The notes under the pieces are model-generated. The model searched no databases, had not been told where the DNA came from, and worked only from the letters and a program-made list of their open reading frames with translations. A stretch of DNA of 64,000 nucleotides. Source: Chiloscyllium plagiosum (Eukaryota). Each line of letters opens with the position of its first letter. The first letter of the stretch is position 1. The position numbers and the translations under genes were made by a program. This document shows positions 9,411 through 60,705 of the stretch, piece by piece. The stretch spans positions 48,729,859-48,793,858 of the forward strand of contig NC_057718.1 of NCBI RefSeq assembly GCF_004010195.1. The letters are read 5' to 3'.

Positions 9411-9710
9411 GTTGAAAATGTGTTGCTGGAAAAGCGCAGCAGGTCGGGCAGCATCCAAGGAACAGGAGAATCGACGTTTCGGGCATGAGCCCTTCTTCAG
9501 GAATGAGGAAAGTGTGTCCAGCAGGCTAAGATAAAAGGTAGGGAAGAGGGACTTGGGGGAGGGGCGTTGGAAATGTGATAGGTGGAAGGAGGTCAAGGTG
9601 AGGGTGATAGGCTGGAGTGGGGATGGGGGCGGAGAGGTCAGGAAGAAGATTGCAGGTTAGGAAAGCGGTGCTGAGTTCGAGCAATTTGACTGAGACAAGG
9701 TGGGGGGATA
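9411..9710 (-). mobile_element. Penelope-like element 3' terminal fragment nested in CR1 ORF2
   Basis: Same terminal motif (tgctggaaaagc.cagcagg.c.ggcagcatcc) as the PLE end at 56515-56650; CR1 sequence resumes after 9710. Confidence 0.85.
9468..9504 (-). ncRNA. Minimal type-I hammerhead ribozyme motif, core intact
   Basis: Minus strand: attc CTGAAGA a gggc-tcat-gccc GAAA c GTC gattc; palindromic ACGT replaces stem III; stem I is very short. Confidence 0.7.
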
Positions 9711-12294
9711 GACAAATGGAATCAAGTGAATCTCTTGAAGACTATAAGGGGTGTAGGGATATTCTTAGCAGGGAGATCAGAAGGGTCAAAAGGGGATAGG
9801 AGATGGCCTTGGCAGATATGATTAAGGATAATCCAGAGAGATTCTATAAGTACATTAAGAACAACTAGGGAGAGAATAGGGTCCTGTAAAGATCAATGAG
9901 GTCATCTATGTGTGGAAAGACAGGAGATGGGAGAGATACCAAATGAATAATTTGTGTCAGTGTTTATGTGGAGAAAGACATGAAGACGAATGAACCCAGG
10001 GAAATAAATATTGATGTCTTGAAAACAGTCCACTTTACAGAAAAGGAGGTGCTGGAGGTCTTCAAATCAAAAAGGTGGATAAATCTCTCGGACCTGGTTA
10101 AGTGTATCTTAGAACGTTGCGGGAAGTTAGGAAAAAATGTGTGGAGCCCCTAGCAGAATATTTGTGTCACTACAGCCACGGGTGAGGTGTCAAAGAACTG
10201 GAGGGTGGCTAATGTTGTGCCTTTACTGATGAAAGGCTGTAAGGAAAATCCTGGGAACAATAGACCAATCAATCCTACATGAGTGGTGGATACGTTCTCG
10301 GAGGGGATTTGAAGCGATAGAATTTATATACATTTGGATAGGCAAAGACTGATTAGTGATAGTCAGCATAGCTTTGTACTTGGGAAAACATATGTCACAA
10401 ACTTGATTGAGTTTCTTGAGGACATGGCCAAAAACATAGATAAGGGCAGAACTGTAGATATTATCTGCATGGACTTTAGTAAGATCTTTGACAAGGTTCC
10501 ACATTGTAGACTGACTAGTAAATTTAGGTCACACGAGATTCAAGGAGAACTTGGTAATTGGATACAAAATTGGCTTGATGGTAGGAGACAGAGGGTGGTG
10601 ATGGTAGAGGGTTGTTTTTCAGACAGAAGGCCTGTGACCAGTGATCAGGGCTGGGTGCACTGTCATTTGTCATTTATATAAACGATTTGGGTGAGAACTT
10701 TGGAAGCATGGTCAGTAAGTTTGCAGATGACACCAAATTTGGTGGTATAGTCAACAGTGAAGAACATTATCTAAGATTACAAAGGGTTTTTGATCAATTG
10801 TGCCAATGGGCTGAGGAGTGGCAGTTGGAATTTAATTTGGATAAATGTGGGTTGTTATATTTTGGTAAGATGAACAAGGGTTGGAATTATACAGTTAATG
10901 GTAGGGATATGAGTAGTGTTGTCAAACAGATGGACCTAGGGGGTTCAGGACATGGTTGTTTGAAAGTTGCATCATAGGTAGACAGTGTGGTTAAGAAGGC
11001 ATTTAGCATGTTTGCCTTCATTGATCAGACCTTTGAATTGGGACATCATGTTGCAGTTGTACAAGACATTGGTGAGGCCACTTCTGGAGTACTGTCTACA
11101 GTTCTGGTCACCAGCAGTAGGAAGTTGGAGAGAGTTCAGAAAAGGTTTACATGAATTTTGCCTGGACTGGAAAGTTTGAGTTATAAAGACAGCCTGAATA
11201 GGCTGGGACTTCTTCCAGTGGAGCTCAGGAGGTTGAGGGGTGACCTTATAGAGGTTTATAAAATCATGAGGGGCAGAGATAAGGTGAATAGCAAAGGTCT
11301 TTTACCGAGGGTAGGGTAGTTCAAAACTAGAGGGAATATTTTTAAGCTGAAAGGAGAAAAATTTAAAAGGGACCTGTGTGGCAATTTTCACACAGCGAGT
11401 GGTTCATATGTGGAATTAACTGCCCAAGGAAGTAATAGATGCAGGTACAGTTACAGCATTTCAAAGACTTCTGGACAGGTACATGAATAGGAAAAGTTTA
11501 GAGGGATATGGGCCAAATGTAGGCAAATGAGACTAATTTAGTTTAGGAAACTTGGTCAACATGGATGAGTTGGACTGAAGGGTCTGTTTCTGTGCTGTAT
11601 GACTCTATGGTTCAGTTGCCTGGAACATTAAAAAAAAATCAATGTGTATGCAGAAGGTAGGAGTGCAGGTTAACCATGAGGTGATGGTTACCAGAAAATG
11701 TAAGGAAATGATAGGGGATGTGTGTGTCATGTTGCACAAAGGAATTGTACTTTGCCAGAGTGGCTTCACTCTGGTGTTAAGCTTGAGGTCCAGTTGCAGG
11801 AGATGGCACAATTTATTGCCCAGTCCTTGGTATGAATTCTAAATCACCTCAGATGCTGCTCATCCAGCAAGTAAACCGAGGTTAATTGCTGTCTGAAAGC
11901 CTATAGATGTGAGAACCTTCAGTAGAAAGGCCACAACTTCCTTTCCTCTTGTAGAACCTACTTTCCCACCTCCTCATCTCCAATTCCCAGAAATATTGCA
12001 GATCAAGAACTCACAAACATTGTTCCCAGAGCTGAACCACATAGAATTCTGTTCTCCCTTATTTTAACCACCAAGTGCCAAAAAGCAGTTTCGAAAACCC
12101 AATGGTATTTTTATAAGCTAAATCAAAAACATCTCATCTATAAGTTTTTGACTGGCTGTTAGAATAGTTCTGGCTCAGAGCCATCTTGAAGCAGAATACT
12201 TGATTATACAGTAATGAAATAAAAAGAGAAAATACTGAAGAAACTCAACAGATCTGGAAGAATATTATATATTCTTCAATATTATATAAAGATT

Positions 12295-12980
12295 GCAGAA
12301 AGTGCACCACAGAGGGATTGAAGAGTCCTTGTGTATGAATCCTCAAAGCCAGTATGCATGTTCAGGAAAGGCAAATGGACTCTTGGTCTCTATACCAAAG
12401 GGAGTTGAGTAAAAAAAAAACAGAGGTTTTACTCATATAAGGCAGTAGTCAGACCACAACTGGAATATTGTGAACAGTTTTGGAGACAGTTCAGGAAAGG
12501 TTCAGTTCGGGTTAATCCTGAGTATGGATGAATTTCCTTATGATGCAAAATCAATTAATTTGGCTTGTATTCATTGGAGTTTAGAAGAATGAGAGGCAAC
12601 CTTATTGAAAAATATAAGATTATTAGAGACTTGACAGAGTAGATGCAGAGAGATGTGTTTTCCCTTGAGGAAGAGCCTCGGACCAGAGGGCCTAATCTCA
12701 GTGAAAGCAGACACCCATTGAAAAGTGATGGAAAGGAAGGCTTTCTCTTAGAAGATAATAGATCTGCAGAATTCTTTACTGCAGTGGGCTGTTGAGGTTC
12801 TGTCATTAAGTATGATCAAGACTGTGGTGGGCAGGTTTCTCACCAGTAAGAAAATCAAGCATGATGGCAATAAGGCAAGAGAGTGGAGTTGAGGATTATA
12901 AGGTCAATCATGATCTCATTGAATGGTGAAGTAAACTTGATGGGCTGAATGAAATCTTCTATTCCTACAGCTTATGTTGC
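12295..12980 (+). mobile_element. Old CR1 3' fragment
   Basis: gtagtcagaccacaactggaatattgtgaacagttttgg (VRPQLEYCEQFW), LYSLEFRRMRGNLIE.YKI, CR1-type 3' tail. Confidence 0.85.
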
Positions 12981-12989
12981 TGCTTCTCA

Positions 12990-13270
12990 TCTCACTGCCA
13001 ATTTAGAGGGCATATAAGAATCAACCAATTTGCTTTGGGCTTAGAGTAAAGATGGCAGATTTCCTTGCCTAAATGATACTTGTGAACAAGATGAGTTTTT
13101 AACAGTAATTAATAATAGCTTCATGGTCGTCATTATTAGGACTAATAATATATTTCAGACATATTAATTAATTTTCCCTGCGCTGTGATGGGATTTGAGT
13201 CCATGCCTCACAGACATCAGGCAGAGATTTCAGGGATTAGTAGTTCAGTGGTAATACCACTATGTCATCG
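12990..13270 (-). mobile_element. tRNA-derived SINE (same family as 55258 and 55765)
   Basis: Minus strand has A-box-like catagtggtattaccactgaactactaat and B-box-like ggactcaaatccc; body aaaactcatcttgttcac...aggaaatctgcc shared with the 55 kb copies. Confidence 0.7.
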
Positions 13271-14845
13271 GCTCCCTTTTAATTTAAAGAGCTCAACTGT
13301 TGGGATCTAAAATGAACATAGGACCTTTAAATTCAGGAAGGCAATTAACCTCCTTGCTCAATGTACACAATTACTTTACTGTTGAGTCACTGATGGAAAC
13401 TAATAATAGTAATGATTTCCTTTTCTTTTTGCTCATGTTGACTTTGCAAAGTCCAGTCTTTTTACTGATTCTAGTTTTTTGTCAAGGAAATGTGCATTTC
13501 ATTTATTATTGCTCAATTAGTTTTGCTGTCAAGATGATCTCTCATGACCATAACTCATTTGTTTGGTTACAAACAAACTTTTTTTCTCCATAGTATTTTC
13601 CATTTAGCTACACAAAGCATGACTTGTTAATTGATGTCATAACATAAGCTTTTAAAGGACCATCTTTCAACATTTCCAGAATACGTTCAAGTTGTTTTTA
13701 ATAAAAAAATGTGGTAAAGAATTACACAATATTGTAATATAGCTCGCTGATTAATGAAAATTTATCGAGTGCTCTACATGAAAACATTGTCAAAGCTGTG
13801 TGCGTGAAGAGTGTTTGTAAATGAAATACAATGTTCAGTCCTGTAATGTAAATGCACTTCTAGGAACAATTTGTCATGCTATCTAATGCTTGAGGCTTTA
13901 TAAATACATTGACCTAAATTTTCCACTGGCCTGACAGACATTATTCCAGTGTAAATACAAGTTGGACACTGGGGCCCTGCAGAATGCCCATCACAACAAA
14001 CTCCAAAGGAATTTCTTGGGAAATTAAATTTCCCAAGATTTGATGCCCTCCAGGGACTAGGCATCCTGGACCCTACCTTCCCTTCTGGCTGGACCGGTCT
14101 CAAATTGACTTGATATTTCCTGTTATACTGACCCAAACATCCTTCCCCCCTAGCCAGACCTGACTCAACTCCCAGATCTCCACTGGACAGCATCAAACTT
14201 AGCCCACTGCCACCATCTCCGATCTGAGCCAATCCCATTTGGTATCCACCCTACACCAGACCCAATTCCTCCCTCCCATCCTAATCTTTCCTAACCACTG
14301 CATCACTTATCCTTCCACTTTGTGTCCTGGCACCCTCCCCTACATACATGCATCCAGGCGTTCAACCCCTATGGAATCCAAGCCCAAACCCATCTCGCAT
14401 GCTAACCCAGTCATCGTAAACCCTTTCCAACTGGCACGTGAACCAACCTACCTGGTACCTACTCATCTGACAACCTACCTCTGCCACCTCTCCATAGTTG
14501 TCATCATGCTTTCCAGCACCTTACCACCATATTGACCTTATATACTTACTGTTTGACAGGAGCTGTCAGGATGGCTGTCAGCAGCTTGACATTTCAGTTT
14601 CCAGCATCTGACAGGAAAAGAGAATGTGGTTTATCTTCCACACTGTGAAAGAAGTGTCAGAATAGAGGGATGTCTCCACACTTCTGAGAGAGCAATACAT
14701 GGAATCTCCTCCAAGAAATGCTGAATTCCCTTCTTCAGTGAAAAAGAAAAGCTGGGGCAGCAATCTGTGTGAGACTGTCACTCCCCTGAACAACCGGCCT
14801 TATTGTGTATTTCTGGAACAAGAAATTGGTGCCACTGGTGACATT

Positions 14846-15016
14846 GGGAGAAAGAGAGGACTGCAGATGCTGAAGATCAGAGCCAAAAAGTGTGGTGCTG
14901 AGAAAGCACATCAGGTAAGGCAGCATCCGAATAGCAGGAGAGTCGACATTTCAAGCATAAGCCCTTTATCATTCCTGATGAAAAACTTATGCATGAAACG
15001 TCGACTCTTCTGCTCC
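14846..15016. mobile_element. Fold-back PLE-terminal mini-element with degenerate hammerhead motifs
   Basis: Left arm gcaggagagtcgacatttcaagcataag is inverted relative to right arm cttatgcatgaaacgtcgactcttctgc; CTGATGA at 14975-14981. Confidence 0.8.
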
Positions 15017-15598
15017 ACTGAGGACATTGTTGAATGTCCTGAACATCATAACTGCATCATTCTGCCCCTGAGCTCATGTGGCATTGCTGCTCAATGTATT
15101 GTGTTAATGGTGTATGCTCACACCCAGTTCTGCTCTTCACCTCCTTCTCCATCCAGCAAGGTACCTCACAGGCCACTCTACTTGCTGACTGCCTCATTCG
15201 TACTCTAGCTGTCCATTTCTCTCTGAACCACTCACTTTCTCCCTCCCACTTGCTGCCGTAATTTCACTTTCACGGGAAGTAGTGAGGGGGAAGTGGCCAA
15301 GGATTGGGAATAGCCAAAATATTGTGATGTTTTGGAATTCAATGTTTTATGGAAACTGCAAATCTTTCATTCAAAGTATTAGGCTGGCAGAATTCCATCA
15401 TATAACTTTAATAATCTGCAAAAAGGAAACAGCATGAAACGTCGACTCTTCTGCTCCACTGAGGACATTGTTGAATGTCCTGAACATATTGTGATGTTTT
15501 GGAATTCAATGTTTTATGGAAATTGCAAATCTTTCATTCAAAGTATTAGGCTGGCAGAATTCCATCATATAACTTTAATAATCTGCAAAAAGGAAACA
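14991..15598 (+). repeat. Complex local duplication A-X-B-A'-B'
   Basis: A 14991-15046 is identical to A' 15432-15487; B 15319-15431 matches B' 15486-15598 with one mismatch. Confidence 0.95.
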
Positions 15599-15826
15599 TT
15601 TGAAAAAGGATATTATTTTTAGGCTGCCCATTTCGAATATCTTTGACTTGCTCAACATTACAGATGGTCCTATTCCTTGATACAGACTTCTATGTTGCTG
15701 GCAATAACCCCACAGACATTGCAACTTTATTTGAGTGAGTTTCCTCCTTGCAGTTATGATAGTAGCAGAAACACGAATAAAACATACAATCAAATGGAAA
15801 GTTAGAATTAACAGGCCTAAAAGCTT

Positions 15827-16028
15827 AGGCAAAAGTGAGGACTGCAGTTGCTGGAAACCAGAGCCTAGATTAGAATGATGCTGGAAAAGCACAGCACGTC
15901 AGGCAGCATCCGAGGAGCAGGAAAATCGATGTTTCGTGCCTGATGAAGGGCTTTTGCCTGAAACGCCGATTTTCCTGCTCCTGGGATGCTGCCTGACGTG
16001 CTGTGCTTTTCCAGCACCACTCTAATCT
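15827..16028. mobile_element. Fold-back PLE-terminal mini-element with hammerhead motif and 14-bp flanking direct repeat
   Basis: ~70-bp inverted arms; central CTGATGA a gggc-tttt-gcct GAAA c GCC; aggcctaaaagctt at 15813-15826 and 16029-16042. Confidence 0.88.
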
Positions 16029-17336
16029 AGGCCTAAAAGCTTGAAGATATCCACACATAATTGAAACATTTAGGGACAAACTTTTGAAGTTTGGATGTGA
16101 ATTCAGTCTGATCAATTATATATTTAGAGAAGGATAGAAATTATGTAATAGCTTATTTAACTGCCTAGCAGCAGGATGACGATATATTTGTTTTACTGAA
16201 TAAATACTGAATAAAACTGTTTTATCCATGAAGATACGATTTTATTTGCAATATGCTAATTTACAGAGATTATTTCCTATGCAATTTTGTGTTGTAAACC
16301 AATGTAGTTTTCAATGATTTTCCTGATGCAGTTGCCATCAATTGAACGGCTTTTATGTTTGAACATCTGTTATCATATTTAGTGGATTATACCACTAATA
16401 TTAATGGCTTCTAAAGCAGAGGGCTGAATATTAACTTGCAATTGTATGAGATGGGGGTAATACTGAAGGTCAATATTCAAGAAATGTACAACAAAAGTGC
16501 GTTGAATCCATTCATTTCTGGTTTATATGGACGTGAGGATTGGTCTTTTAAATATTATAGTAAGATTGCATTTCTACATTTTTATTGTTATTGCAATTTA
16601 AACCCAGCTTTGCCAGGCTTTTCAAAACCCAACAGCCACAAGGGCAAGAAGAGTTAGGTAAGTGTTTTTACAATATTTCTTGTGGCCCTGAAGATAGCCA
16701 GGTGTTTATATCAGGTCCAACAAATGTAATAGCATCTGTTCCCCTGCTAACCACCATTAGAACCCCCATAACTTAAGAAGCTATCTGCCACTCGCTAGCG
16801 ACAGTCAAAAAACCTCCACAATCATTGACTGTCCATCAGGACCTCACAGTCCTGGGGTCACTCCACCACTTATGAGACAGAAGGAATTCTGCCTGACTGA
16901 CTTTTATCCTGTCAATAAGGCTGCCTGTAGTTAGGAACCTGACAAATACTTACAACAGCTAAAAACTGAAGGACATTCAGGAAACTCCTTTTTTCAGGTT
17001 TATCAACCTCACAACAATGCTCTCACGTAGAACTCTGAAGGTACGCCTACTTTACCACAAAGGAGTCCACTGGCATTATGCACTGTAATGAATTGAAAGA
17101 AGCCATTGGTATTGGCTGATGTTTAAAATATGTTGCTATTGCCTCAGCAGTCCATTTTACATTTCTTCCACTTTTCATTTACTTCAAAGTCAAAAGCTAA
17201 TCCATTCCGCAGAGATGTTAATTGTGTTTCTCTTTTGTTATCACTTGTTTAACGTTATCTGATGAATTCAAAACAAACCCAATTGTACTAAGAGAAACAA
17301 ATGAAGTATGGTATTATAGCACTGAATGGACAGAGG

Positions 17337-17367
17337 CTAAAATAATACCTAAAATAATACCTAAAAT
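17337..17367 (+). repeat. Short tandem repeat, 12-bp unit x ~2.5
   Basis: ctaaaataatac-ctaaaataatac-ctaaaat. Confidence 0.85.
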
Positions 17368-21949: not shown

Positions 21950-22272
21950 ATTAGATTAGATTAGATTAGATTACTTATAGTGTGGAAACAGGCCCTTCGG
22001 CCCAACAAGTCCACACCGACACGCCGAAGCGTAACCCACCCTACCCCCACATTTACCCCTTACCTAACACTATGGGCAATTTAACACGGCCAATTCACCT
22101 GACCTGCACATCTTTTGGACTGTGGGAGGAAACCGGAGCACCCGGAGGAAACCCACGCAGACACGGGGAGAACGTGCAAACTCCACACAGTCAGTCGCCT
22201 GAGGCAGGAATTGAACCCAGGTCTCTGGCGCTGTGAGGCAGCAGCGCTAACCACTGTGCCACCATGCCGCCC
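21950..22272 (-). mobile_element. HE1-type V-SINE, full length, young, (AATCT)n tail
   Basis: tRNA head gggcggcatggtggcacagtggttagc, V-domain gtgtggagtttgcacgttctccccgtgtctgcgtgggtttcctccgggtgctccggtttcctcccacagtcc, CR1-like tail; tgattag on both flanks (probable TSD). Confidence 0.95.
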
Positions 22273-23139: not shown

Positions 23140-23280
23140 CGGGCGACGTGTCGGTTAGGTGCATTAATTGGGGGTAAATATAGGGTGGGGGTAATGGATC
23201 TGGGTGGGTTGCTCTTTGGAGGATCGGTGTGGATTTGTTGGGCCAAAGGGCCTATTTCCATACAGTAGGGATTCTATGAA
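23140..23280 (+). mobile_element. HE1-type SINE, internally deleted / 3' part
   Basis: ggtgtggatttgttgggccaaagggcctatttccatacagtagggattctatga tail. Confidence 0.85.
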
Positions 23281-24231
23281 ACAATGGTGTATAGGCACCT
23301 GATTTGTTCACTCAGCTTTCCTTGTCAGTTTCTTGGGAGACCTGGTTGCCCACTGTTAGATCTTTTAAACCAGTAAACAAATCTCAGCATTGGAAGCCTC
23401 CTGAATCGATTAGTTGTCCACCCTGATATGCCACCATGATGTAATTTCTTGGGTGAAATACTGCTGCTAATATGTTATGATCTGAGTACTGCTCTGTGCG
23501 TTGACCCATGTAGCACACATTCTAGGGATTCAGCTTTTGATGAGACAGATGTCTGAACGTTTATTTACAGCACTAAATATTTACATTTCTGTAATACACA
23601 GACATAAACATCTTCAGAGTTCTGTGCTTGCTGACTATTGTTGTACATTATATGCACGTAACTGACTGATTGAACAAAGAGCGAGTGCTGAAGATGAGGT
23701 AGGTACCTTTATACAGAATGTTTCATGCTACAATGTCAGTTGACTGGTTTAAAGATATACTATCAATGGGATTTGGAATCTGTGAAAAAACATTACAGCC
23801 ATTCCCCCACCATACCTTTTCAACACTGTTAGCCTGGAAATAGGTAGTTTGGAGGCCTGTTAACACATATTTGGAGCTTTGTATAATTTAACACCCACTT
23901 CTAGCCATTCATCTGCTGACTCATATTTAAATTGCCCTCTTTGATTCTGTCATGGTCATGGGTAGTTTTGAAACCAAGCTGAATAATTTTGACTTGTGGG
24001 TTGCTTTGAAATCATTATCAGGGAATTAACTGGATTATGCAAGGTTATTGATAGATTGTTAAGGATCAATGGCCCCCAGTAGATGAACAGTGAACTTTAA
24101 TTTGAATAAATGGCCTTGAGGACATTATCTCCCTTTCGATAAACTGGAGGCCATCTTTAAATTTACAGTGGCTTTGAACAGTGGAAATCTTTCAAACATC
24201 TTTCAAATTAATAGCAAGGTAATATGCTTGT

Positions 24232-24505
24232 AGTTCCCGCCTCAGGCGACTGTGTGTAGTTTGCACATTCTCCCCATGTCTGTATGGGTTTCCTCCGGGT
24301 GCTTCTGTTTCCTCCCTCAGTCCAAAGATGTGCAGGTTAGGTGAATTGGCCATGCTAAATTGTCCGCAGTGTTAGGCGAAGGGGTGAGTGTAGGGGAATG
24401 GGTCTGGGTGGGTTGCGCTTCGGCGGGTCGGTGTGGACTTGTTGGGCCGAAAGACCTGTTTCCACACTGTAAGTAATCTAATCTAATCTAATCTAATCTA
24501 ATCTA
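24232..24505 (+). mobile_element. HE1-type V-SINE, 5'-truncated, (AATCT)n tail
   Basis: V-domain and tail near-identical to the 21950-22272 copy. Confidence 0.95.
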
Positions 24506-25203: not shown

Positions 25204-27056
25204 TGGGCTGAATGTTATTTTATTTGGCTAAGTCCGAGATGCATCAGTTTTTTTGGAGGGTTTGTTATGGCAAGGCCTAGTCATCTCTTGTAGTATCTCA
25301 ATAAACTCACCTCATGAATTCGCTACAATGCCCTGATGATGACTCTCACATCCGATTTCCATCCCAACTTATTACTCACCATTCTCAGAACAACTCAGAA
25401 CTCAGTGGATATTATAGAATTCACCAGTTTCCATTGTGTCCCTGTCCTCTTTAAAAGCTGTTGTGCACCCTGGCAAGCGATGTCAGTTTGGAGCTGCTCT
25501 GCACATTTTCTGACATTTGCCTTGGACATTGCAGATAGGGAGAAATGATCCCCCACTTTCCAGGCAGTGACCTGGAGGTCCTTCTAGATGGATGGTGCCA
25601 ACGTGGGCCATCCCCCTTTGCCAGAACCATCACTGCAGGCCATAACACTAGACCATGCCAGCTTGATCTGAGGTTGCTACCTGGATTGAAGCTCCCTCAG
25701 CTGACTGCCCAGCACTGTACAAAAAAAGGCTAAAGTCCTTCTGTACTGGCCAAAGTCAGTTCTTCCATCTTCTTTCCTGTACCTCACACTCACTCTGTCT
25801 CTGCTACTGCAACAAATGCCACCTACTCTCATACTCTACCACTCTCACTATTACCTGCAGCATCTTCCCTCACTCACTGTTGTCCACCCCAATGCCTGAC
25901 TGCATCAACTCTGCCTGCTTACCCATCTGCATCAAAAGTAATAAATATGCCCCCCACGTTCACCTCCCATAATGCCTGCATCCTCTCATTTCATGAAGGA
26001 AACAGCCCATAGTAGGGCTAAAAGAGTCAAGATTGGTGGTGTGTGGTCTGTCCTTTTTGCTCCTCACCTGGTAGGCAGTGACAACCCTGAGTCTGTACAT
26101 CCTGAGCAGGGCCTGGACTGATATCGGAGGCTGCACATGGCTTAATGTGCTGCAAACCCCTGAGCAAAGGTTAATATCCTTGAAAACAACAAATGCTGGA
26201 GATCACAGCAAGTCATATAGCATCCATGGAGAGAGAGCAAGCTAACGTTTCGAAGCTAGATGACTCTTTATCAGAGCTCCATCATTACTTCAGCTCCGAT
26301 GAAGAGTCATCTAGACTTGAAACGTTAGCTTGCTGTCTCTCCATGGATGCTGTCTGAGTTGCTGTGATCTCCAGCATTTGTTTTTTCAGTACAGATCCCA
26401 GCATCTGCAATAATTTGTTACTACATTTTGTTTAACATTCTTGACTGAGGAATGCAGTAATATGATCCTGGTATCTCTGGCTGAGGGGCAAACACAAAAA
26501 GGCAAGACAATTCATTGCAAGACAGGGCTACTGTGAACATCCAGGTAGGCTCTGAGTGAGACTGTGATATGAGAGAAACTGAACAGCCCAGAGATGGAAT
26601 CTGGTCTACTTCTTGAGATGGGACCATGGTCTTTAGTGCTCAGTGTCCACGCTGCTGCATTGCAATGATGGTGGAGCAATAAAATGCAGAAGCATCCTGT
26701 AAATGGATCAGAGATGTGCCATCATGGTTCCTGGAGACCATTGGCTGCATGTGGAGGGTACTTGTGATGTCAGTACCCAATGTCCAATATGGAGAGCGTT
26801 TGGAGGAAGCAGTGAGTTGAATCCACCAGGTTGCCCTGGTTTTTATGACAGTATTATGTAAGCTATATTGTTAACAAGGAATGTAACAAACAACAATCAC
26901 CATCAATTAGCATCTCGCTGCTGCCTAGTGAGAATCTTGCCATATGAGTGGTAAACTCCTAAATAATAGTGTGTTGCTCCCCATGTTGAAATGCCTCGCT
27001 GCTTTGTAGCCTGATTTTGCCACACATCACACTATAGCTCACGTTATTCAGACCCT
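25204..27056 (+). mobile_element. Non-autonomous Harbinger-like DNA transposon carrying a decayed two-exon Myb/SANT ORF
   Basis: Termini gggctgaat ... attcagacc. Exon 1 PHFPGSDLEVLLDG...AQHCTKK, donor gtcagt at 25755, exon 2 from ~25999 ETAHSRAKRVKIGG (cf. KxAHNxxERxxTGGG). The left end recurs at 30147 (+) and 39950-40073 (-). Confidence 0.55.
26181..26420. mobile_element. Fold-back PLE-terminal mini-element with two opposed hammerhead motifs
   Basis: ~97-bp inverted arms at 26182-26278 and 26292-26388; consensus of the arms gct CTGATGA a gagtc-atcta-gactc GAAA c GTT agc. Confidence 0.88.
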
Positions 27057-32070: not shown

Positions 32071-32344
32071 GCCTGGTCTGAGGGGACCACCCCATGTGAA
32101 AGCACTCTCAGCTATCTAGAGAAATGTATGTGGAAGATCAATGGCATTCTCCACTCTGACAATGTAAGTGCCACCATCTTCTCTCCAAAACCTCACATTT
32201 ACTTTATCTCTGCTTCTGTACTCATCTCGCACAAAGGCTGGTGTTCTAACATTCTCTTTGTTTCCTGTAGCATTTCCCCTCTTTTGCTCTCATCCATCCC
32301 AGTCCCCAATATCACTAACCTTGTGTACCCTCTGCAAAAACAAA

Positions 32345-35065: not shown

Positions 35066-35309
35066 GAGTGACATTGACAAGATCTTTCAGTTCATTGTCC
35101 AATCTGTATAAGGAGTCACCAAGGCCCTGTCAGCCAGGAAATGCAAGTTAGAAAGCGTTGCTCATGATGCGAAAATCTGGTGTGCATTGTGGGGCTGAAC
35201 CACAGCCTCTACTGGACCTGATTAGAGTCATAGAGTCATAGAGATGTACAGCATGGAAACTGACCCTTCAGTCCAACCTGTCCATGCCGACCAGATATCC
35301 CAACCCAAT

Positions 35310-37780: not shown

Positions 37781-37933
37781 TTAGTCCTACCTTGTCCCTG
37801 CCTGCCCTGACTGTTTGACTCACTTCTGTTCTCANNNNNNNNNNNNNNNNNNNNNNNNNNNNNNNNNNNNNNNNNNNNNNNNNNNNNNNNNNNNNNNNNN
37901 NNNNNNNNNNNNNNNNNNNNNNNNNNNNNNNNN

Positions 37934-38159
37934 TACCCCTACATTTACCCCTTACCTAACACTACGGGCAATTTAGTATGGCCAATTCACCTGACCCTGC
38001 ACATCTTTGGACTGTGGGAGGAAACCGGAGCACCCGGAGGAAACCCACGCAGACACGGGGAGAACGTGCAAACTCAGTCAGTCGCCTGAGGCGGGAATTG
38101 AACCCGGGTCTCTGGCGCTGTGAGGCAGCAGTGCTAACCACTGTGCCACCGTGCCGCCC
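37934..38159 (-). mobile_element. HE1-type V-SINE inserted at the end of CR1 ORF1; 3' part lies in N gap 37835-37933
   Basis: gggcggcacggtggcacagtggttagcactgctgcctcacagcgccagagacccgggttcaattccc head plus V-domain. Confidence 0.95.
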
Positions 38160-39049
38160 AGTATATTAGTCCCCTTCCAATTTAAGTGCAATCTGACCTT
38201 CTTGTACAGGTCACTTCTACCCCAAAAGAGATTCCAATGATCCAAAAATGTGAATCCTTCTCCCATACACCAGCTCCTCAGCCATGCATTCATCTGCTCT
38301 ATTCTCCTATTCCTGCTCTCACTAGCTCGTAGCACTGGGAGTAATCCAGTATTACTACACTCGAGGACCTCCTTTTTAAATTTCTGCCTAGCTCTCTGTA
38401 ATCTCCCTTCAGAATCTCAACTGTTTCCCTTCCTATGTCATTGGTTCTAATGTGGACAATGACCTCTTGCTGGGCCCTCTCCCCCATGAGAACATTTTAC
38501 ACCCTCTCTGAGACATTCTTGATCCGGGCACTAGGGAAGCAACACACCATTCTGCTTTTTCGCTGCTGGCCACAGAAACGTCTGTCTGTACCTCGAACTA
38601 GAGAATCCCCTAACACAATTGATCTCTTGGAACCCAACGTACCCCTTGTTGCATTCGAGCCAGCCTCCATACCAGAAACTTGGCTGTTTGTGCTACGTTC
38701 CCCTGAGAATCCATCAGCCCCTACATTTTCCAAAACAGCATACTTGTTTGAAATGGGTGTTTCCACAAAAGACTCCTGCACTGGCTGCCCACCTCTCTTA
38801 CCTTTCCTGGAGTTAACCCATCTATGTGACTGTATCTGAGACTTTCCCTCCTTCCTATAACTGCCATCCATCACATACTGTTGCTGTTGCAAATTCCTCA
38901 TCACTTCCAACTGTCTCTCCACCGATCCATTCGATTTGACAAGATTCGCAGCCAGTAGCATTTATGGCAGATATAATTTGCAGTAACCCTTAAACTCTCT
39001 TTCAACTCCCACATCTGACAAGATGTACATATCACTCTATTAAAGGCCA
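38160..39049 (-). pseudogene. CR1 ORF1: zinc finger/coiled coil plus SGNH-type esterase, frameshifted
   Basis: ICTSCQMWE...YICHKC; IVLGDSLVRG (block I), CFPSARI (II), VHIRTNDIG (III), LHLN (V). Confidence 0.9.
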
Positions 39050-41510: not shown

Positions 41511-41815
41511 TGGGGCACAGTGACTCAGCGGTTAGCACTGCTGCCACACAACACCAAGGACATGGGTTTGAGTCCAGTCTTGGGTAACTGCCAGTGTAGA
41601 ATTTGCACATTCTCCCTGGGTGCTCTGGTTTCCTGCCACAGTTCAAAGATGTGCAAATTAGGTGGATTGACCATGCTAAATTGCCCTGTAATGTCCAGGG
41701 ATGTGCAGACTAGATGGATTAGCCATGGGAAATGTGGAGTTACAGGGATAGAGTAGGAGGCTGGTGGAAGGGTTGGTGTGGACCCAGGGACCTCCCTATA
41801 GGGATTTTATGATGA
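41511..41815 (+). mobile_element. HE1-type V-SINE, older
   Basis: tRNA head and decayed V-domain; tail gggattttatga. Confidence 0.85.
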
Positions 41816-45737: not shown

Positions 45738-46090
45738 CGGGGTGGCATAGTGGCTTAATGGTTAGCATTGCTGTCTCACAGCGCCAGGAACGTGGGTTTA
45801 ATTCCACCCTCGGGCGACTGTCTGTGTGGATTTTGTATATTCTCCCTGTGTCTGTGTGGGTTCCTCTGGCTGCTCTGGTTTCCTCCCACAGTCCAAACAT
45901 GTGCAGGTTAGGTGGATTAGCCATGCTAAATTGCCCATAGTGTTCAGGGATGTGTATGCTAGATGGATTAGGCATGGGAAATGTATACTCACAGGGATGG
46001 TGTGAATCTGATTGGAATGCTCTTCGGAGGGCCAGTGTGGACTTGATGGGCTAAATAGCCTGCTTCACACTGTAAGAATTCTATAATTCT
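45738..46090 (+). mobile_element. HE1-type V-SINE, full length, intermediate age
   Basis: Head ggggtggcatagtggcttaatggttagc, V-domain, tail cacactgtaagaattcta. Confidence 0.92.
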
Positions 46091-50072: not shown

Positions 50073-51786
50073 TCACAGAATTCCTACAGTGCGGAAGCAG
50101 GCCATTTGGCTCATCAAGTCTGCACCGATCCTCCAAAGAGCATCCCACCCAGACCGACATCCCTACCTGATCCCTGCATTTCCTATGGCCAATCCACCTA
50201 ATCTGTACATAGAGTCACTGAGTCATAGAGCTATACAGCATGGAAACAGACCCTTCAGTCCAACTTGTCTATGCCGACTAGGCATCATAAATTAATCTAG
50301 TCCCATTTACTGGCATTTGGTCAATATCCCACAAAAGTCTTCCTATTCATGTGCCCATCCAGATGCCATTTAAATGTTGTTATTGTACCAGCCTCCACCA
50401 CTTCCTGTGGAAGCTTATTCCAAACACGTATCACCCTCTGCATGAAAAATTTCCCCTAGGTCCTTTTTACATTTTTCCCCTCTCACCTTAAATTTCTGCT
50501 ATCTTGTTTTGGACTCCCCTACTCTGAGAAAAAGAGCTTGGATATTCACCCTATCTATGCCCCTCATAATTTTATAAACCTCTATAAGACCACCCCTCAG
50601 CCTTTGATGCCCAAGGGAAAATAGCCCCAGCCTATTCAGCTTCTCCCATCAGCTCAAAACCTCCAAACCTGATAATTTCCTTGTACATCCTTTCAGAACC
50701 CTTTCAAGTTTCACAACATCCTTCCTATAACAGGGAGACCAGAACTGAACACAGTATTCCAAAAGTGGCCTAACCAATGATCTGTACAGCCTCAACATGA
50801 CTTTCCACCTCCTATACTCAATGCACTGACCAATAAAGGCAAGCATACCAAATGCCCTCTTCATTATCCCATCTACCTGTAACTCTACTTTCATGGAACT
50901 ATGAACTTGCAGTCCAAAATCTCTTTTTTCAGCAATACTCCCCAGGACCTTACCATTAAGTATATAAGTCCTGCCCTGATTTGCCTTTCCAAAAAATATT
51001 ACCTCACATTTATCTAAATTAAAGTTCATCTGCCACTCCTTGGCCCATTAGCCTATCTGATGAAGGCTCCATTGTACTCTGAGTTAACCTTTTTTCACTG
51101 TCCACTATACCTTCAATTTTAGTTTCATCTGCAAAATTACTAACGATACATCCAATTATTTATATAAATGACAAAAAGCAGTGGACCCAGCACCGATCCT
51201 TGTGACACACTACTGGTCATAGGCCTCCAGTCTGAAAAGCAACCCTCCACCACCACTCTTTGTCTCCTCCCTTTGAGCCAGTTTTATCTCCAATTGGCTA
51301 GCTCTCCTTGCATTCCATGTGACCTAATCTTGTTAACCAGTCTACCACGAGGAACCTTATCGAATGTCTTACTGACGTCCATATAGATGACATCCACTGC
51401 TCAGCTGTCATCAATCCTCTTTGTTATTTCTTCAAAAAGAAAACTCAATCAAGTTAGTGAGACACGATTTCCTATGCATTAAGCCATGTTGGCTATTCCC
51501 AATGACTTTCCAAATACGTGTAAATCTCAGGATCCTCTCCAATAACTTGCCCACCACTGATGTTAGGCTCACCGAACTATAGTTCCCTTACTTTTCCCAA
51601 ACACCTTTCTTAAATAATGGCATATCTTTGGACTGTGGGAAGAACCAAAGCACCCAGAGAAAACTCAAATACAGATACTGGGAGAAAGCACAAGCACCAC
51701 ACAGTAAGTCACCCAAGGCTGGAATTGAACCTGGGTCCCTGGTGCTATAGGGCAGCAGTGCTGACCACTGAGCAACCATGCCACCC
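50073..51786 (-). mobile_element. HE1-type SINE split by a CR1 insertion (pieces 50073-50208 and ~51620-51786)
   Basis: The halves join at the consensus cctaacctgcacat|ctttggactgtggg. Confidence 0.88.
50209..51620 (-). mobile_element. CR1 3' ~1.4 kb nested in the HE1 SINE
   Basis: ORF 50649-51029 FNLDKCEVIFFGKANQGRTY...LEYCVQFWSP; (TGACTCTA)n tail. Confidence 0.95.
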
Positions 51787-51798
51787 TTCAACTTTACC

Positions 51799-51870
51799 TT
51801 CCCTGACCAGGAATTGAACCTAGGCTGCAGCGATGAAAGTGTTGAATCCTAACCACGAGACAACCAGGGC
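51799..51870 (-). pseudogene. tRNA-Glu(TTC) pseudogene
   Basis: GCCCTGGTTGTCTCGTGGTTAGGATTCAACACTTTCATCGCTGCAGCCTAGGTTCAATTCCTGGTCAGGGAA aligns without gaps to vertebrate tRNA-Glu-TTC; A14 is lost and the anticodon stem is broken by CpG-type transitions. Confidence 0.9.
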
Positions 51871-54083: not shown

Positions 54084-54236
54084 GAAAGCTGACGTTTTGG
54101 ACATATGCCCTTCATCAGGAGGGATAATGCCCAAAACATCGACTCTCCTTCTCGGATGCTGCCTGACCTGCTGTGCTTTTCTAGCACCACACATTTTGAC
54201 TCTAACTCTCTAGCATCTGCAGTCCTTACTTTCTCC
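54084..54236. mobile_element. Asymmetric fold-back PLE-terminal mini-element with hammerhead motif
   Basis: Minus strand CTGATGA a gggc-atat-gtcc AAAA c GTC abuts the plus-strand partial copy gggataatgcccaaaacatcgactc plus the full terminus. Confidence 0.82.
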
Positions 54237-55257
54237 GACAGCGTGAATACACAAAGCTATTCTGGCTGCCCACAGAGGTAACACTGTCTGTTACCATTAC
54301 TTTGGGGAATTCTTGGGCAGACTTAGTTCCTCAAAAAGCTACATACAAGGTTAAAGAAAAGAGTAGTTGTTGGGGATCATTTACAGAGACTTTGGCTTGG
54401 GATTCTTAATGTCAGTTTTATATAAAAACAATACAATTTGTGTTCAACACAACACTCAGATGTACGTTTACACAAGGTATAAAGTACTAATGCAAATTAT
54501 TATTGTCTTCAAGTTATCATGGATCACATTAGGCACTTCTTGACACTGGACTAGAAGGAAATGACAAGGCAATGAGATGAAAGATATTAAAAAATACCAA
54601 TGACACGAACAGAAATAAGAATGGGGACAAATTAAAATCAAATATTGTACAAAAGAAATACTCATCAAAGGTGTATTGTGCTAACTCAGACATGAACATT
54701 AAGAAAAGAAAATGAGAACTGTGTAACGGCTTTCAGTCTATGGGAACACAAGTACAAAATCTGTGCTGGAATATTGTTGCTATGGTTTCTAAATAAATAC
54801 ATATTCAGCATGACAAATCTGTATGAAATTTATGAATGTGTATATATAGTTCAAAATTTCCACATAATCTCTTATACTGCACTAAAACCAGCAAAAATAC
54901 ATTTTTCAAGAAAACTCCTCAGCGTGCCAGATCTATAAATAATGAACTTTATAAAGTGAAGCATTTTAAGTGTATGATCTGAATGTTTCTTGAACTTTCT
55001 GTTCAAATCTCAGGACCCTACCATTACATTTGCAAAGTTTCTTTAGAATATCCATCTATTTAATTTTTTTCAGTGCAACAGCATTGAGCAATTGAGGTGT
55101 GTGTATTGTACAAACATTGTCAAAATAAAGTACATTTAGACAACTGTCCAAGTAAAAACTGAAGAAGTTGCAAATTGTACATTGTTTTGAAAGTGTAATG
55201 TTTATGTTGTTTTCATAATAGGGCACTTACTCACCTTCCAAGCATTTCCAGTCCTGG

Positions 55258-56337: not shown

Positions 56338-56465
56338 ACCTGCATTAGTCAGGGGTAAATATAGTAGGGTAGGAGAATGAGTCTGGGTGGGTTACTGATC
56401 AGAGGGTTAGTGTGGACTTGTTGGGTCAAAGGGCCTGTTTCCACACTGTAGGGATTCTATGATGC
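56338..56465 (+). mobile_element. HE1-type SINE 3' part
   Basis: gtggacttgttgggtcaaagggcctgtttccacactgtagggattctatga. Confidence 0.85.
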
Positions 56466-56514
56466 TGAGGGCCCTGACGTGTTCTACTTTCCAGAATTGA
56501 CTCTCCCTTCTGCT

Positions 56515-57738
56515 GGGTAAAAGCAATGACTTCAGATGCTGGAAACTAGAGTCTAGATTAGAGTGGTGCTGGAAAAGCACAGCAGTTCAGGCAGCATCCG
56601 AGGAGCAGTAAAATCAACGTTTCGGGCAAAAGGCCCTCATCCGGAATACAGTCAGAGAGCCTGAAGGGTGGAGAGATAAGTGAGAGGAGGGTGGGGGTGC
56701 GGAGAAAGTAGCATAGAGTAGCACAGAGTACAATAGGTGAATGGGGGAGGGAGGGTGGAGTGGATAGGTGGAAGAGAAGATAGGCAGGTAGGACACGTCA
56801 TGGGATCAGTGCTGAGCTGGAAGTTTGGAACTGGGGTGAGGTGGGGGAAGGGGAAATGAGGAAACTGCCGAAGTCCACATTGATGCCCTGGGGTTGAAGG
56901 GTTCTGAGGCGGAAGATGAGGCGTTCTTCCTCCAGGCGTCTGGTGGTGAGGGAGCGGCGGTGAAGGAGGTCCAGGACCTCCATGTTCTCTGCAGAGTGGG
57001 AGGGGGAGTTGAAATGTTGGGCCACAGGGTGGTGTGGTTGATTGGTGCAGGTGTCCCAGAGATGTTTCCTAAAGCGCTCTGCTAGGAGGCGTCCAATCTC
57101 CCCAATGTAGAGGAGATTGCATCGGGAGCAATGGATACAATAAATGATATTGGTGGATGTGCAGGTAAAACTTTGATGGATGTGGAAGGCTCCTTTAGGC
57201 CCTTGGATGGAGGTGAGGGAGGAGGTGTGGGCGCAGGTTTTGCAATTCCTGCGATGGCAGGGGAAGGTGCCAGGATGGGAGGGTGGACCTGACCAGGTAG
57301 TCACGGAGGGAACGGTCTTTGCGGAAGGCGAAAAGGGGTGGGGAGGGAAACATATTCCTGGTGATGTGGTCAGTTTGGAGATGGCAGAAATGTTGGCGGA
57401 TGATTTGGTTTATGCGAAGGTTGGTAGGGTGGAAGGTGAGCACCAGGGGCATTCTGTCCTTGTTACGGTTGGAGGGGTGGGGTCTGAGGGCGGCGGTGTG
57501 CGATGTGGATGAGATGTGTTTGAGGGCATCTTTAACCATGTGGGAAGGGAAATTGCGGTCTCTAAAGAAGGAGGCCATCTGGTGTGTTCTGTGGTGGAAC
57601 CGGTCCTCCTGGGAGCAGATACGGCGGAGGCGGAGGAATTGGGAATACAGGATGGCATTTTTGCAGGAGGTAGGGTGGGAAGAGGTGTACTCCAGGTAGC
57701 TGTGGGAGTCAGTGGGTTTGTAAAAAATGTAGGTGTCA
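56515..57738 (-). mobile_element. Penelope-like retroelement (Neptune-like), 5'-truncated: RT thumb, Cys linker, GIY-YIG endonuclease, 3' terminus with hammerhead motif
   Basis: IFYKPTDSHSYLEYTSSHPTSCKNAILYSQFLRLRRICS; linker CHRRNCKTC; NIIYCIHCSRCNLLYIGEIGRLLAERFRKH; frameshifted. Motif CGGATGA gggc-ctttt-gccc GAAAcGTT at ~56612-56646. Confidence 0.95.
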
Positions 57739-57949
57739 AGTCTCCCTTCTGCTGCCATAGCTTTAAGCAGCACAAACTTTGTTTTGTAAGTGTAAATGAG
57801 ATTTCTGTTAAACCTTCACCAAACTCACTTCTGTGCACAGAAGCTCTGAGATATTTTGTCACTCATGAGTAAGGATCTATGTTCTTTACAACAAATGGAA
57901 CAATTTGAAAAGATTGGACCAGTAATCAGCAATTTGAGTAAAGTACTGT

Positions 57950-58360
57950 CGGCCATGGCTCAGTTCATAGAGCTCTTGACTCAAAAAGTTGCAGATTCAC
58001 AATGAAATCCAGGCACCCACAACAATGCTGAGAGAACGCGGCTTTGTTGCAAATGCAATCTTTTGGATATAAGTTAAGCCTTGTCCACATGTGTTCTTTC
58101 AGGTGCACATAAAAGATTCTTGGCACTCATTCAAAGAAAATAACATAAGCTCTCTGTGGTGTCCTGGTCAATACTTATCTGTCAAATATCATCCATTTTG
58201 GTTCACGTTGTCATTTTTTAGGAAATTGCTTTGCACGTTTTGCTTGTTGCAACTCACATTAAAACAGTGACTGCACATCAAAACTATTTTATTGGCTGAC
58301 AAGTGTTTTGAGACAATTTGAAGTCATAAAAGACACTTCATAAACACAAGTCTTTTTTTA
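57950..58360 (+). mobile_element. Deu-domain SINE (SacSINE1/AmnSINE1-like), decayed
   Basis: tcttttggatataagttaagcc...caggtgcacataaaagattcttggcactcattcaaagaa...ggtgtcctggtcaatacttat matches the Deu core; L2-like tail. Confidence 0.75.
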
Positions 58361-58677
58361 CTATAAGTACCAATCAACTAAGACTCTCATGGTTAAAAAT
58401 ATACAGGATTTCAGTTTTTTTTAGGCCAGCAGGTGATGTATTTTATAGTATTGAATATGCCACCTTGAAATTTTCTCACCTATCATTTACTTTAGTAAAA
58501 CAGTTACTGATTTAATCCACAATTCAGCTTCCTGTATTTAAAAGCCTGAAATACAGCATACTCAAATGTTGGAAACTTGGTCATTTTAGTGAGTTTGTGA
58601 TATTTGTATCTGCTTATTTTCCTTACCTGATGATTGCAAATTCACAAATAGGGCAGAATTGGCCATGTTGAATTAAA

Positions 58678-59530
58678 GAGTCATAGAGTCATAGAGATGT
58701 ACAGCATGGAAACAGACCCTTCGGTCCAACTCATCCATGCTGACCAGATATCCTAAATTAATCTAGTCCCATTTTCCAGCACTTGGCCCATGTCCCTCTA
58801 AACCCCTCCTATTCATGTACTCACCCAGATACCTTTTAAATGCTGTAATTGGACTAGCCTCCACCACCTCCTCTGGCAGCTCATTCCAAACACGCACCAC
58901 CTTCTGCATGAAAAAGTTGCCCTTTAGGTCCCTTTTAAATCTTTCCCCTCTCATCCTAAACCTATGCACTCTAGTTTTGGACTCCCCAACCCCAGGGAAA
59001 AGACCTTGTGTATTTACCATAACTGTGCTCCTCATGATTTTATAAACTTCTATAAGGTCACCCCTCAGCCTCCGATGCTCCATGGAAACCTGCCCAGCCT
59101 ATTCAGTCTCTCCCTATAACTCAAACCCTCCAACCCTGGCAACATCCTTTTCTGAACCCTTTCAAGTTTCACAACATCCTTTGTGGGCGGCACGGTGGCC
59201 CAGTGGTTAGCACTGCTGCCTCACAGCGCCTGTAGACCCGGGTTCAATTCCCGACTCAGGCGACTGACTGTGTGGAGTTTGCACATTCTCCCCGTGTCTG
59301 CGTGGGTTTCCTCCGGGTGCTCCGGTTTCCTCCCACAGTCCAAAGATGTGCGGGTCAGGTGAATTGGCCATGGGTGTAGGGGCATGGGTGGGTTGCGCTT
59401 CGGCGGGTCGGTGTGGACTTGTTGGGCCGAAGGGCCTGTTTCCACACTGTAAGTAATCTAAATCTAAATCTAAAATCCTTCCTATCGGAGGGAGACCAGA
59501 ATTACGTATAATATTCCAAAAGTGTGTTCT
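58678..59530 (-). mobile_element. CR1 3' fragment interrupted by an HE1 SINE
   Basis: ORF 58763-59083 EHRRLRGDLIEVYKIM...; resumes after the SINE at atccttcctatcggagggagaccagaatt. Confidence 0.95.
59184..59473 (+). mobile_element. Young HE1-type V-SINE, CpGs intact, (AAATCT)n tail, internal deletion
   Basis: Full head and V-domain; atcctt flanks both sides (probable TSD). Confidence 0.96.
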
Positions 59531-59840
59531 GTCAATAGGATATACCTGGCGCCAGTGTTGCAGGTGTACTGGAACATCTTGGCTAGGGTTGCAACAAGTC
59601 CTGGAGCACAAATCTTCAGTACTATTGCTGAAATGTTGTCAGGGTCTTCTCAGTCTATTGAACACCTAGTGGCTTCAGACCTTTGTTGATGTAATGTTGA
59701 GTGAATCAAATTGGCTGAAGACTCTGTGATGCTGGGGATCTCAGGAGGAGGCTGAGGTGACTCATCCATTTAGCACTTCAGGCTGAAGATTGTTGCAAAT
59801 GCTTCAACCTTGTCTTTTGCACGCTATTGTCCACCTTGAT
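59530..59840 (-). mobile_element. ORF2 fragment of a second LINE family (CR1/L2 group), pre-RT region
   Basis: AKDKVEAFATIFSLKC...PPPEIPSITE...DNISAIVLKICAPGLVATLAKMFQYTCNTG. Confidence 0.75.
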
Positions 59841-59899
59841 GATGGGGTTACCAGAGCAGCCTCCTTCTCCAATGAGTCGTTTAATTGTTCATCACTTTT

Positions 59900-60110
59900 C
59901 ATGTCCTCTGTGCATTGGAGTGTGTCTGTGGGAAAGGTGATGAAGCCTGACACCCATTTGAACAGGGCATGAAGTGGGGACTACTGCTTATGAAGTGCAG
60001 CACTAGTCTCCTGGAATGAGGTGGATGCAAAACCTTTTAGGGCTGCTACAACATTGACTGCTAAAGGCACCCCACCAGTCATCTGGTGTGATGGCACATA
60101 TATGTCTGTA
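59900..60110 (-). pseudogene. Second Harbinger transposase fragment
   Basis: GGVPLAVNVVAALKGFASTSFQETSAAL (cf. LPVAVKVTAALxFFASGSFQ). Confidence 0.6.
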
Positions 60111-60549
60111 CATTCTTGGACTTCATCTACGCTGACACTCCAACATACCAAGATGACATGACACTCCATACTCAGGGTAATAGCATAACCTTCTTCTTGG
60201 TTTTACCTCTTCAGGCTGTGTCTCCTGATGATTGGAGACACTTGCTTTTGTCCATGTACCTACTATTATCTGCCTTAATGCCCTGGATGTGTGAGCGATC
60301 TACACTGACACATTTTATAATGGGAAGTCTCTTTCTGTGACGTCCTGGCAGAGTTCTGTGCTGACTACTTTGCTGCCAGGTATTGTTGCACCACTTGAGG
60401 AGGCTCAGCTCTATTCTGTCCTTCCCCACTCTCAAATGTAAGTTCAGCATTTTCGAAAGTAATCTCCCAGTGATCTTAACATACTAATGACAGATTGTGA
60501 TAACTTTTTACAAAGGTATCCCCACCTCTGTTGTCCTTCTAATACTAAT

Positions 60550-60705
60550 AAAAATTGGAAGAACTGCGGATGCTGTAAATCAGAAACTAAAGCAGAAATT
60601 GCAGGAACTGAGGAAGGGTCATTCGACCTGTACAGTTAACTCTGATTTCTCTGCATCGATGCTGCAGACCTGCTGAGCTTTTCCAGAAATTTCTGTTTTT
60701 ATTCC
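60550..60705. mobile_element. Fold-back PLE-terminal mini-element with decayed hammerhead motif
   Basis: Inverted ends aaagcagaaattgc / aatttctgtttt; CTGAGGA a gggtc-attc-gacct at 60608; same family as 32345; tctaata on both flanks. Confidence 0.75.

Follow-up and report, generated by a model that had tools for sequence, protein, structure and literature searches.

Minimal hammerhead motifs on Penelope-like element termini in a 64-kb stretch of the Chiloscyllium plagiosum genome

Minimal hammerhead ribozymes (min-HHRs) of metazoan Penelope-like elements (PLEs) were described by Cervera and De la Pena in 2014 (PMC4209133), who reported a consensus, covarying families and pairs of motifs on opposite strands, with about 4,000 copies in coelacanth and 9,000 in Xenopus. 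These ribozymes were found to be inactive as monomers and weakly active as dimers. PLEs that encode an endonuclease (EN+) can carry pseudo-long terminal repeats (pLTRs), an adjacent inverted truncated copy, a tail of 30-40 bp at one end and a target-site duplication (TSD) (PMC3846280, PMC8557442), and in Neptune and Nematis a CX2-5CxxC linker is located between the reverse transcriptase (RT) and the endonuclease (PMC8557442). In the anole Poseidon element PAc, the hammerhead cuts only with the element's protein, two internal reverse-transcription start sites define the tail and the template is mainly uncut RNA (Frangieh et al. 2024, PMC11167929). PLE-derived hammerhead retrozymes in tandem arrangement, including those of one chondrichthyan genome, are the subject of a preprint (bioRxiv 10.64898/2026.07.22.740005). 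Penelope elements are also listed in the whale shark genome paper (PMC8455134). Here we analyse 64,000 nucleotides of the carpet shark Chiloscyllium plagiosum (NC_057718.1, positions 48,729,859 to 48,793,858; hereafter the window), in which nine loci carry hammerhead-like motifs and are very probably truncated 3' ends of at least three PLE families (A, B and C).

All nine loci had been listed in an initial annotation of the window and were observed at the same coordinates and on the same strands. A profile built from 14 stretches of the window, and therefore circular for these, returned 15 matches, namely four solo ends, ten arms that form five palindromes and one local duplicate. Three arms that each retain part of the core (14973 (-), 15935 (-) and 54122 (+)), a tail-only arm at 60556-60608 (-) and the local duplicate at about 15435-15485 were absent from that annotation. 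The features are given below, where UTR is untranslated region and LINE is long interspersed nuclear element.

9412-9713, minus strand: family A solo PLE 3' end with about 210 nt of 3' UTR and a hammerhead, tail-less, inside a LINE remnant; ends approximate
9473-9500, minus strand: intact min-HHR of family A, with CUGAAGA, extra A, stem II GGGC/GCCC and GAAAC-GUC
14847-15016, both strands: family A head-to-head palindrome, TSD 13/15 (14832-14846 and 15015-15029)
15435-15485, plus strand: local duplicate of the right end and flank of the 14847-15016 palindrome
15828-16029, both strands: family A palindrome, perfect 14-bp TSD (15813-15826 and 16029-16042)
26182-26431, both strands: family C palindrome with two near-complete hammerheads, 11/13 direct repeat in the flanks
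32337-32885, minus strand: family B solo PLE 3' end with a decayed GIY-YIG C-terminus, 3' UTR, hammerhead and tail
32434-32463, minus strand: intact min-HHR of family B, with stem I AGUU/AGCU (4 bp), CUGAAGA, extra A, stem II GGGUC/GACUC and GAAAC-GUU
33968-34437, minus strand: family B solo PLE 3' end, tail-less, with a decayed hammerhead, inside a LINE remnant
54088-54238, both strands: family A palindrome
56516-57826, minus strand: family A 5'-truncated PLE with RT thumb, C-x4-C-x2-C linker, GIY-YIG (frameshifted), 3' UTR, hammerhead and tail
60553-60703, both strands: family B palindrome, 10/11 direct repeat in the flanks

The window was searched with a descriptor consisting of CUGANGA, an optional extra base, stem II of at least 4 bp, GAAA-N-N-U-H and stem I of at least 2 bp, a check of the kind that the initial annotation had proposed for the whole genome. 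Two matches without core mismatch were found, at 9473-9500 (-) and 32434-32463 (-), and four were found when up to one core mismatch was allowed. The motif is in excess over chance, as the corresponding means in 826 local dinucleotide-preserving shuffles were 0.0024 and 0.073, and none of the shuffles (0/826) reached the observed two and four. The two perfect matches are exactly the copies, 9468 (GUC) and 32429 (GUU), whose core had been annotated as complete. Cutting is predicted between 9473 and 9472 in the first, where stem I has just 2 bp followed by a U-U mismatch and an A-U pair, and between 32434 and 32433 in the second. The catalytic boxes CUGANGA and GAAA-N-N-U-H are whole in the copies at 9500 (-), 32463 (-) and 14975 (+); every other copy has between one and four changes in them. 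When 11 copies were used to build a covariance model, no additional whole motif was found in the window, with training copies scoring 33.6-51.5 bits and the next match 15.3. No hammerhead family was present among the ten Rfam matches in the window at E up to 10, and exact-pattern scans of metagenome and viral contigs returned 0 loci.

Three families were distinguished. Family A comprises 9500 (-), 14975 (+), 14973 (-), 15940 (+), 54118 (-), 56643 (-) and two partial arms, with GGGC/GCCC in stem II. Family B comprises 32463 (-), 34066 (-) and 60608 (+), in which GGGUC faces GACUC or GACCU, and family C comprises 26274 (-) and 26296 (+), in which GAGUC faces GACUU or GCUUC. Stem II had been annotated as differing by family yet still pairing, and this part holds; the gagtc/gactc pair given as an example is present in no single copy, being a composite of 26296 (+) (GAGTC/GACTT) and 26274 (-) (GAGTC/GCTTC). 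On 11 aligned copies, 82% of 89 cells were observed to be paired; shuffles gave 74.8% (0/500) and slid registers 11-47%, and 12 cells were changed on both sides (0/500 shuffles). Within stem II, 87.8% of the cells are paired and three of the five pairs show two-sided change, with compensatory C-G/U-A at the fourth pair and G-C/A-U at the second. These pair counts bear out the earlier proposal of three families with covarying stem II. We noticed that stem I, on which the annotation had not remarked, covaries too, its two inner pairs alternating between C-G and U-A among the families. This stem is 4-5 bp long in families B and C and consists of 2 bp and a mismatch in A.

The extra nucleotide that had been noted between A9 and stem II, located between positions 9 and 10.1, is A in 10 of the 11 aligned copies, and the closing pair 10.1-11.1 is G-C in six, G-U in four and A-U in one. 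Replacement of stem III by the palindrome ACGT, likewise described before, was found in 8 of 13 arms; four of the other five differ by one base, and 60608 (+) is destroyed there. The copy at 60608 (+) keeps stem II with its GAAA box destroyed, and 14975 (+) keeps both core boxes with 2/4 pairs in stem II. The shark motifs therefore resemble the min-HHRs of PMC4209133 in their core, the extra base at 9/10.1, G10.1-C11.1, the palindromic 15.2-16.2 without stem III and the short stem I, as well as in their covarying families, mostly solo truncated copies, opposite-strand pairs and thousands of copies per vertebrate genome. A U-Y mismatch occupies the third position of stem I in family A, which sets this family apart from the min-HHRs of that paper, and unlike canonical type I and Rfam hammerhead families the shark motifs match no curated model and have no stem III. 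In families B and C a pyrimidine-rich run ends in CAG 2 nt before C3, which gives a splice-acceptor-like sequence at stem I (32463-32490 (-), 34066-34090 (-) and 26275-26295 (+)).

The location of minimal type-I hammerhead motifs on PLE termini, as first annotated, agrees with the endonuclease remnants that precede 56643 (-), 32463 (-) and 34066 (-). Each of these three motifs follows a same-strand GIY-YIG remnant at a distance of about 200-280 nt. A 1.3-kb frameshifted remnant with an RT thumb, a C-x4-C-x2-C linker and GIY-YIG terminates in the 56643 (-) motif, and six homologues of the protein fragment of this remnant were found among 755 candidates. The GIY-YIG fragment shows 82% identity to a protein labelled Chiloscyllium punctatum, 62% to one labelled Rhincodon typus and 57% to one labelled Stegostoma tigrinum, and is 52% identical to an 894-aa RT and GIY-YIG protein; these best relatives indicate a carpet shark as host. 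The relatives P0001, P0002 and P0005 match GIY-YIG and RVT_1, and the C-x4-C-x2-C linker is present both in the window translation and in P0005. Searches with P0002 (tblastn) located the endonuclease remnants before 32463 (-) (E 3e-7, 32868-32668) and 34066 (-) (E 3e-4, 34437-34342). Furthermore, the 9500 (-) copy and the 56643 element have matching UTRs, with 142 identical bases among 184 aligned. In families A and B the motif is thus placed as in PLE min-HHRs, in the pLTR, in sense and downstream of the RT-endonuclease gene. The linker, in view of its distribution as given in PMC8557442, points to a Neptune- or Nematis-type element; on this basis we consider Neptune likely, because it is the linker-bearing clade reported in vertebrates. 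A further PLE endonuclease remnant is present at 577-800 (+) (tblastn E 1e-10) and is truncated before its hammerhead. A weak family B tail match at 12214-12271, beside a short AT-rich palindrome, is possibly a much older PLE stub.

Five of the loci are inverted pairs of 150-250 bp with their 3' ends facing outward, where one arm stops short and its partner continues into a further tail of about 35-40 nt. Boundaries were read by eye, with 1-4 nt of microhomology. In 14847-15016 the tailed minus arm starts at U4, and the plus arm reaches from 3-6 nt before C3 (14975) to about 14 nt past the cut site. In 15828-16029 the tail-less plus arm starts 0-1 nt before C3 (15940) and the tailed minus arm begins within stem II, on its 3' strand. 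The tail-less minus arm of 26182-26431 (C3 26274, G8>A) begins about 4 nt ahead of C3, and its tailed plus arm (C3 26296, U4>C) at least 17 nt upstream. In 54088-54238 the minus arm (C3 54118, G12>A) begins 1-2 nt ahead of C3 and extends to the cut site or a few bases beyond, and the tailed plus arm starts at the extra A. Finally, the tail-less plus arm of 60553-60703 starts exactly at C3 (60608), and the minus arm is distal tail only. The tail-less arm therefore starts 0-6 nt before C3 in all five palindromes (three families), and the start of the tailed arm varies, lying at about +1, +7, +16 or +85, or at least 17 nt upstream. All five centres differ, including the three of family A. TSDs are clear at 15828 (14/14) and 14847 (13/15) and weak at 26182 and 60553; the repeat at 54088 is not above the null.

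Head-to-head inverted arms, a tail on one arm, TSDs and a zinc-finger-like linker before GIY-YIG, as in Neptune and Nematis, are shared with EN+ PLEs. Unlike the EN+ insertions in the available descriptions, both arms are 30-130 nt long and the tail-less arm starts at the front edge of the hammerhead. The cut site is spanned by 13 of 14 arms and no arm starts there, which argues that the templates would have been uncut or re-ligated RNA. The 54088 palindrome has a minus arm whose end may coincide exactly with the predicted cut site (54085-54091 (-)); the six bases that follow GUC show three differences from the family tail and recur at 54253, and the 6-mer is not above the null. If many copies were to end at the cut site, cut RNA would have served as template.

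None of the 15 profile matches are adjacent copies on the same strand, and so the window holds no head-to-tail array of complete motifs. The shark copies are PLE-derived and hammerhead-bearing, like the animal non-LTR retrozymes that the preprint reports in one chondrichthyan genome among others, and unlike those head-to-tail complete units they are solo or head to head. A local tandem duplication at 15316-15598 (116 nt, 98%) has a copy of the right end and flank of the 14847 palindrome between its units. Weak Rfam matches to mir-1791, mir-2007 and mir-2131 on two palindromes (15890-16005 and 26213-26357) were read as hairpin artefacts, being far below the gathering scores and located on palindromes. 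Such palindromes are raw material for hairpin RNAs.

Core and stem II are both kept in just two of 13 arms, and core changes were observed in the other 11. For example, 33968-34437 (-) carries C3>A, G12>A and 16.2 G>A, and 56516-57826 (-), with C3 at 56643, carries U4>G and a change of the extra A to G. CpG-type transitions form 12 of the 22 core changes and affect nine arms at two CpG sites, C11.1-G12 and 15.2-16.2; they fall on four of the 16 listed core positions, a list that includes the free position N7. This pattern would fit methylation-driven neutral decay. Long hairpins (z -2.5 to -15.5) are predicted for the four palindromes that were folded, with the hammerhead stems buried inside.

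The PLE family is clearly very large. The 56400-58000 stretch was found at 58-73% of sampled words in public DNA runs from three coded species, and 94,744 and 86,377 contigs matched 56470-56970 in two public DNA runs; contig counts are not copy counts, and they agree with the very high copy number that had been proposed. At the mutated sites of the 56643 copy, the majority letters of run X1 (depth-weighted, from the 40 of 184 difference rows listed) give U4 at 97%, the extra A at 98%, the stem II pair at 93% and GUC at 71%. If the window is typical, its two intact motifs and nine insertions per 64 kb correspond by one-window arithmetic to about 30,000 intact motifs per Gb, an extrapolated density above the published counts. 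In a polyA RNA run, 2,476 reads on the element end were found on both strands and 97% of them continue into unrelated sequence; copies are therefore present within host transcripts, either of the same species or of a relative. The raw polyA run shows no site with many molecule starts or ends, and it was not used as this library type is unsuited to cut ends. Depth drops across the front edge of the hammerhead in all runs, and this was not counted because the copy's own mutations and upstream subfamily differences give the same drop. Among the 15 of 83 joints listed, four of the five opposite-strand joints have one side at 56632-56640.

Taken as a whole, we judge it highly probable (about 0.86) that these loci derive from at least three PLE families as truncated 3' ends, that the putative hammerhead of these families likely cut the parent RNA only as a dimer or with the element's protein, and that the scattered copies are likely inert insertion by-products that decay unselected. 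Selection would have acted on the parent elements and not on the dispersed copies. In the absence of stem III, two motifs in one tandem transcript would pair through ACGU to form a dimer helix, and the hammerhead of the parents would have processed tandem transcripts through this helix. Reverse transcription of the uncut or re-ligated template may then start from two sites that lie beyond the cut site by about 60 and about 100 nt in the downstream direction, which would give the tail-less and tailed ends respectively. Both target strands would be primed, and the two short complementary DNAs (cDNAs) would be joined head to head. A hammerhead upstream of two reverse-transcription start sites, priming of both target strands and an uncut main template would be shared with anole PAc; unlike that element, which belongs to the Poseidon clade and was tested in vitro (PMC11167929), the shark element has a Neptune/Nematis linker and is described here from its sequence.

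Several observations weigh against this interpretation. Of the nine flank repeats, only two lie above the 99th percentile of the null distribution. Pairs with two-sided change (5/9) are not above shuffles (96/500), and the relatedness of the copies inflates the other covariation measures. Because it comes from three related families and hence few independent events, the covariation is support below R-scape grade. Stem I of family A is weak, with 2 bp followed by a U-Y mismatch, and five of ten cells are unpaired at the mismatch column. The window's own RT and endonuclease fragments have no Pfam match at E 0.01, and no coding remnant of family C is present in the window, so that the PLE status of this family rests on the shared tail and palindrome form. 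Finally, for the two intact copies the dimer fold was predicted at -13.3 and -11.3 kcal/mol compared with -27.3 and -26.0 kcal/mol for the best two-strand fold, neither the hammerhead nor the dimer fold is the predicted minimum-energy fold of either copy, and folding z-scores are unremarkable. These predicted energies neither support nor refute the ribozyme fold; as the energy model disfavours the dimer fold, help from the element's protein would likely be needed.

A more tentative proposal, which we regard as possible and rather doubtful, is that the short copies are strong-stop-like cDNAs and thereby mark the 5' terminus of PLE RNA. In this scheme, a dimeric RT-endonuclease would use the two internal start sites to prime both target strands, and the tail-less cDNA would run off the RNA 5' end ahead of the ribozyme and capture the other cDNA by microhomology. 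The start of all five tail-less arms 0-6 nt before C3 suggests such a run-off. A start just upstream of the hammerhead has a precedent in Drosophila Penelope, where an intron that ends next to stem I (PMC4209133) begins 46 nt after the start site (PMC2377424). Against the proposal, n is five, the boundaries were read by eye, read depth across the front edge is confounded by subfamily divergence, and the solo tail-less copies 9500 (-) and 34066 (-) extend 200-370 nt further upstream. If true, shark genomes would hold a very numerous fossil read-out of the PLE start site and of second-strand priming.

Among the alternatives, the motif might be a conserved PLE protein-binding, promoter or priming signal that has the letters of a hammerhead and does not cut in vivo. 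This agrees with the weak in vitro activity of min-HHRs given in PMC4209133, with the anole catalytic mutants that had no effect on insertion and the lack of RNA-seq reads ending at the cut site of the anole element (PMC11167929), and with the absence of arm starts at the cut site and the weak stem I of family A described above. However, three diverged families have retained all catalytic positions and both stems, and the anole PLE hammerhead did cut once the element's protein was added (PMC11167929). We therefore consider a non-cutting signal unlikely.

It is very unlikely that the dispersed copies form a working self-cleaving population in host transcripts, cutting as trans-dimers or kept by the host. 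The whole motif at two of nine loci, the great abundance of the family and the polyA reads that run into unrelated sequence on both strands would agree with such a population, and the initial annotation had likewise proposed that the genome could hold very many latent self-cleaving motifs, including in introns. Such a reservoir was not borne out. Core changes affect 11 of 13 arms and are over half CpG-type, the arms of each folded palindrome pair into one hairpin that buries both motifs, and a lone min-HHR gave no cleavage in PMC4209133. In addition, the two intact copies lie 23 kb apart and come from different families. Among 148 of the 392 candidate non-repeat frames of the window that were scanned, none was a host exon, the lone match being a LINE ORF1-like (open reading frame 1) esterase; a long intron is still possible, and for this window the intron remark is accordingly unproven.

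The least probable alternative, which hardly survives, is that the palindromes are a separate retrozyme-like or MITE-like (miniature inverted-repeat transposable element) non-autonomous family copied as a unit, for five of nine loci are such palindromes and two have clear 14-15 bp TSDs, but all their centres differ, even within family A, head-to-tail arrays of complete motifs are absent from the window and the arms match the ends of longer PLE remnants.

Other repeats are present in the window. LINE copies with AP (apurinic/apyrimidinic) endonuclease and GDSL-esterase ORF1 matches, which we take to be CR1-like, are located at 35224-38961 (-), 4457-5477, 8816-11616, 50211-51436 and 58677-59149, and two PLE ends sit inside LINE remnants. 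A dispersed short repeat of a few hundred bases, presumably of a family like the short interspersed nuclear elements, was found at 22114-22272, 23189-24481, 41523-41721, 45740-46066, 59234-59461 and 61331-61642. A tRNA-like Rfam match is located at 51799-51870 (-).

The novelty that the initial annotation had implied is unsupported, because each feature it listed is already present in PMC4209133; the concept is not new, and the motif was correctly named. Sharks are absent from the vertebrate rows and text of that paper available to us, and its supplement may bear on this point. In the literature that joins hammerheads with sharks or Chondrichthyes, no report of a shark PLE hammerhead was found apart from the 2026 preprint; Lunse et al. 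and Repbase/Dfam may list copies. The present loci extend the PLE minimal hammerheads to carpet sharks, where copy number may exceed the published vertebrate cases. As a large natural data set, they also bear on the priming and termination of cDNA by PLEs.

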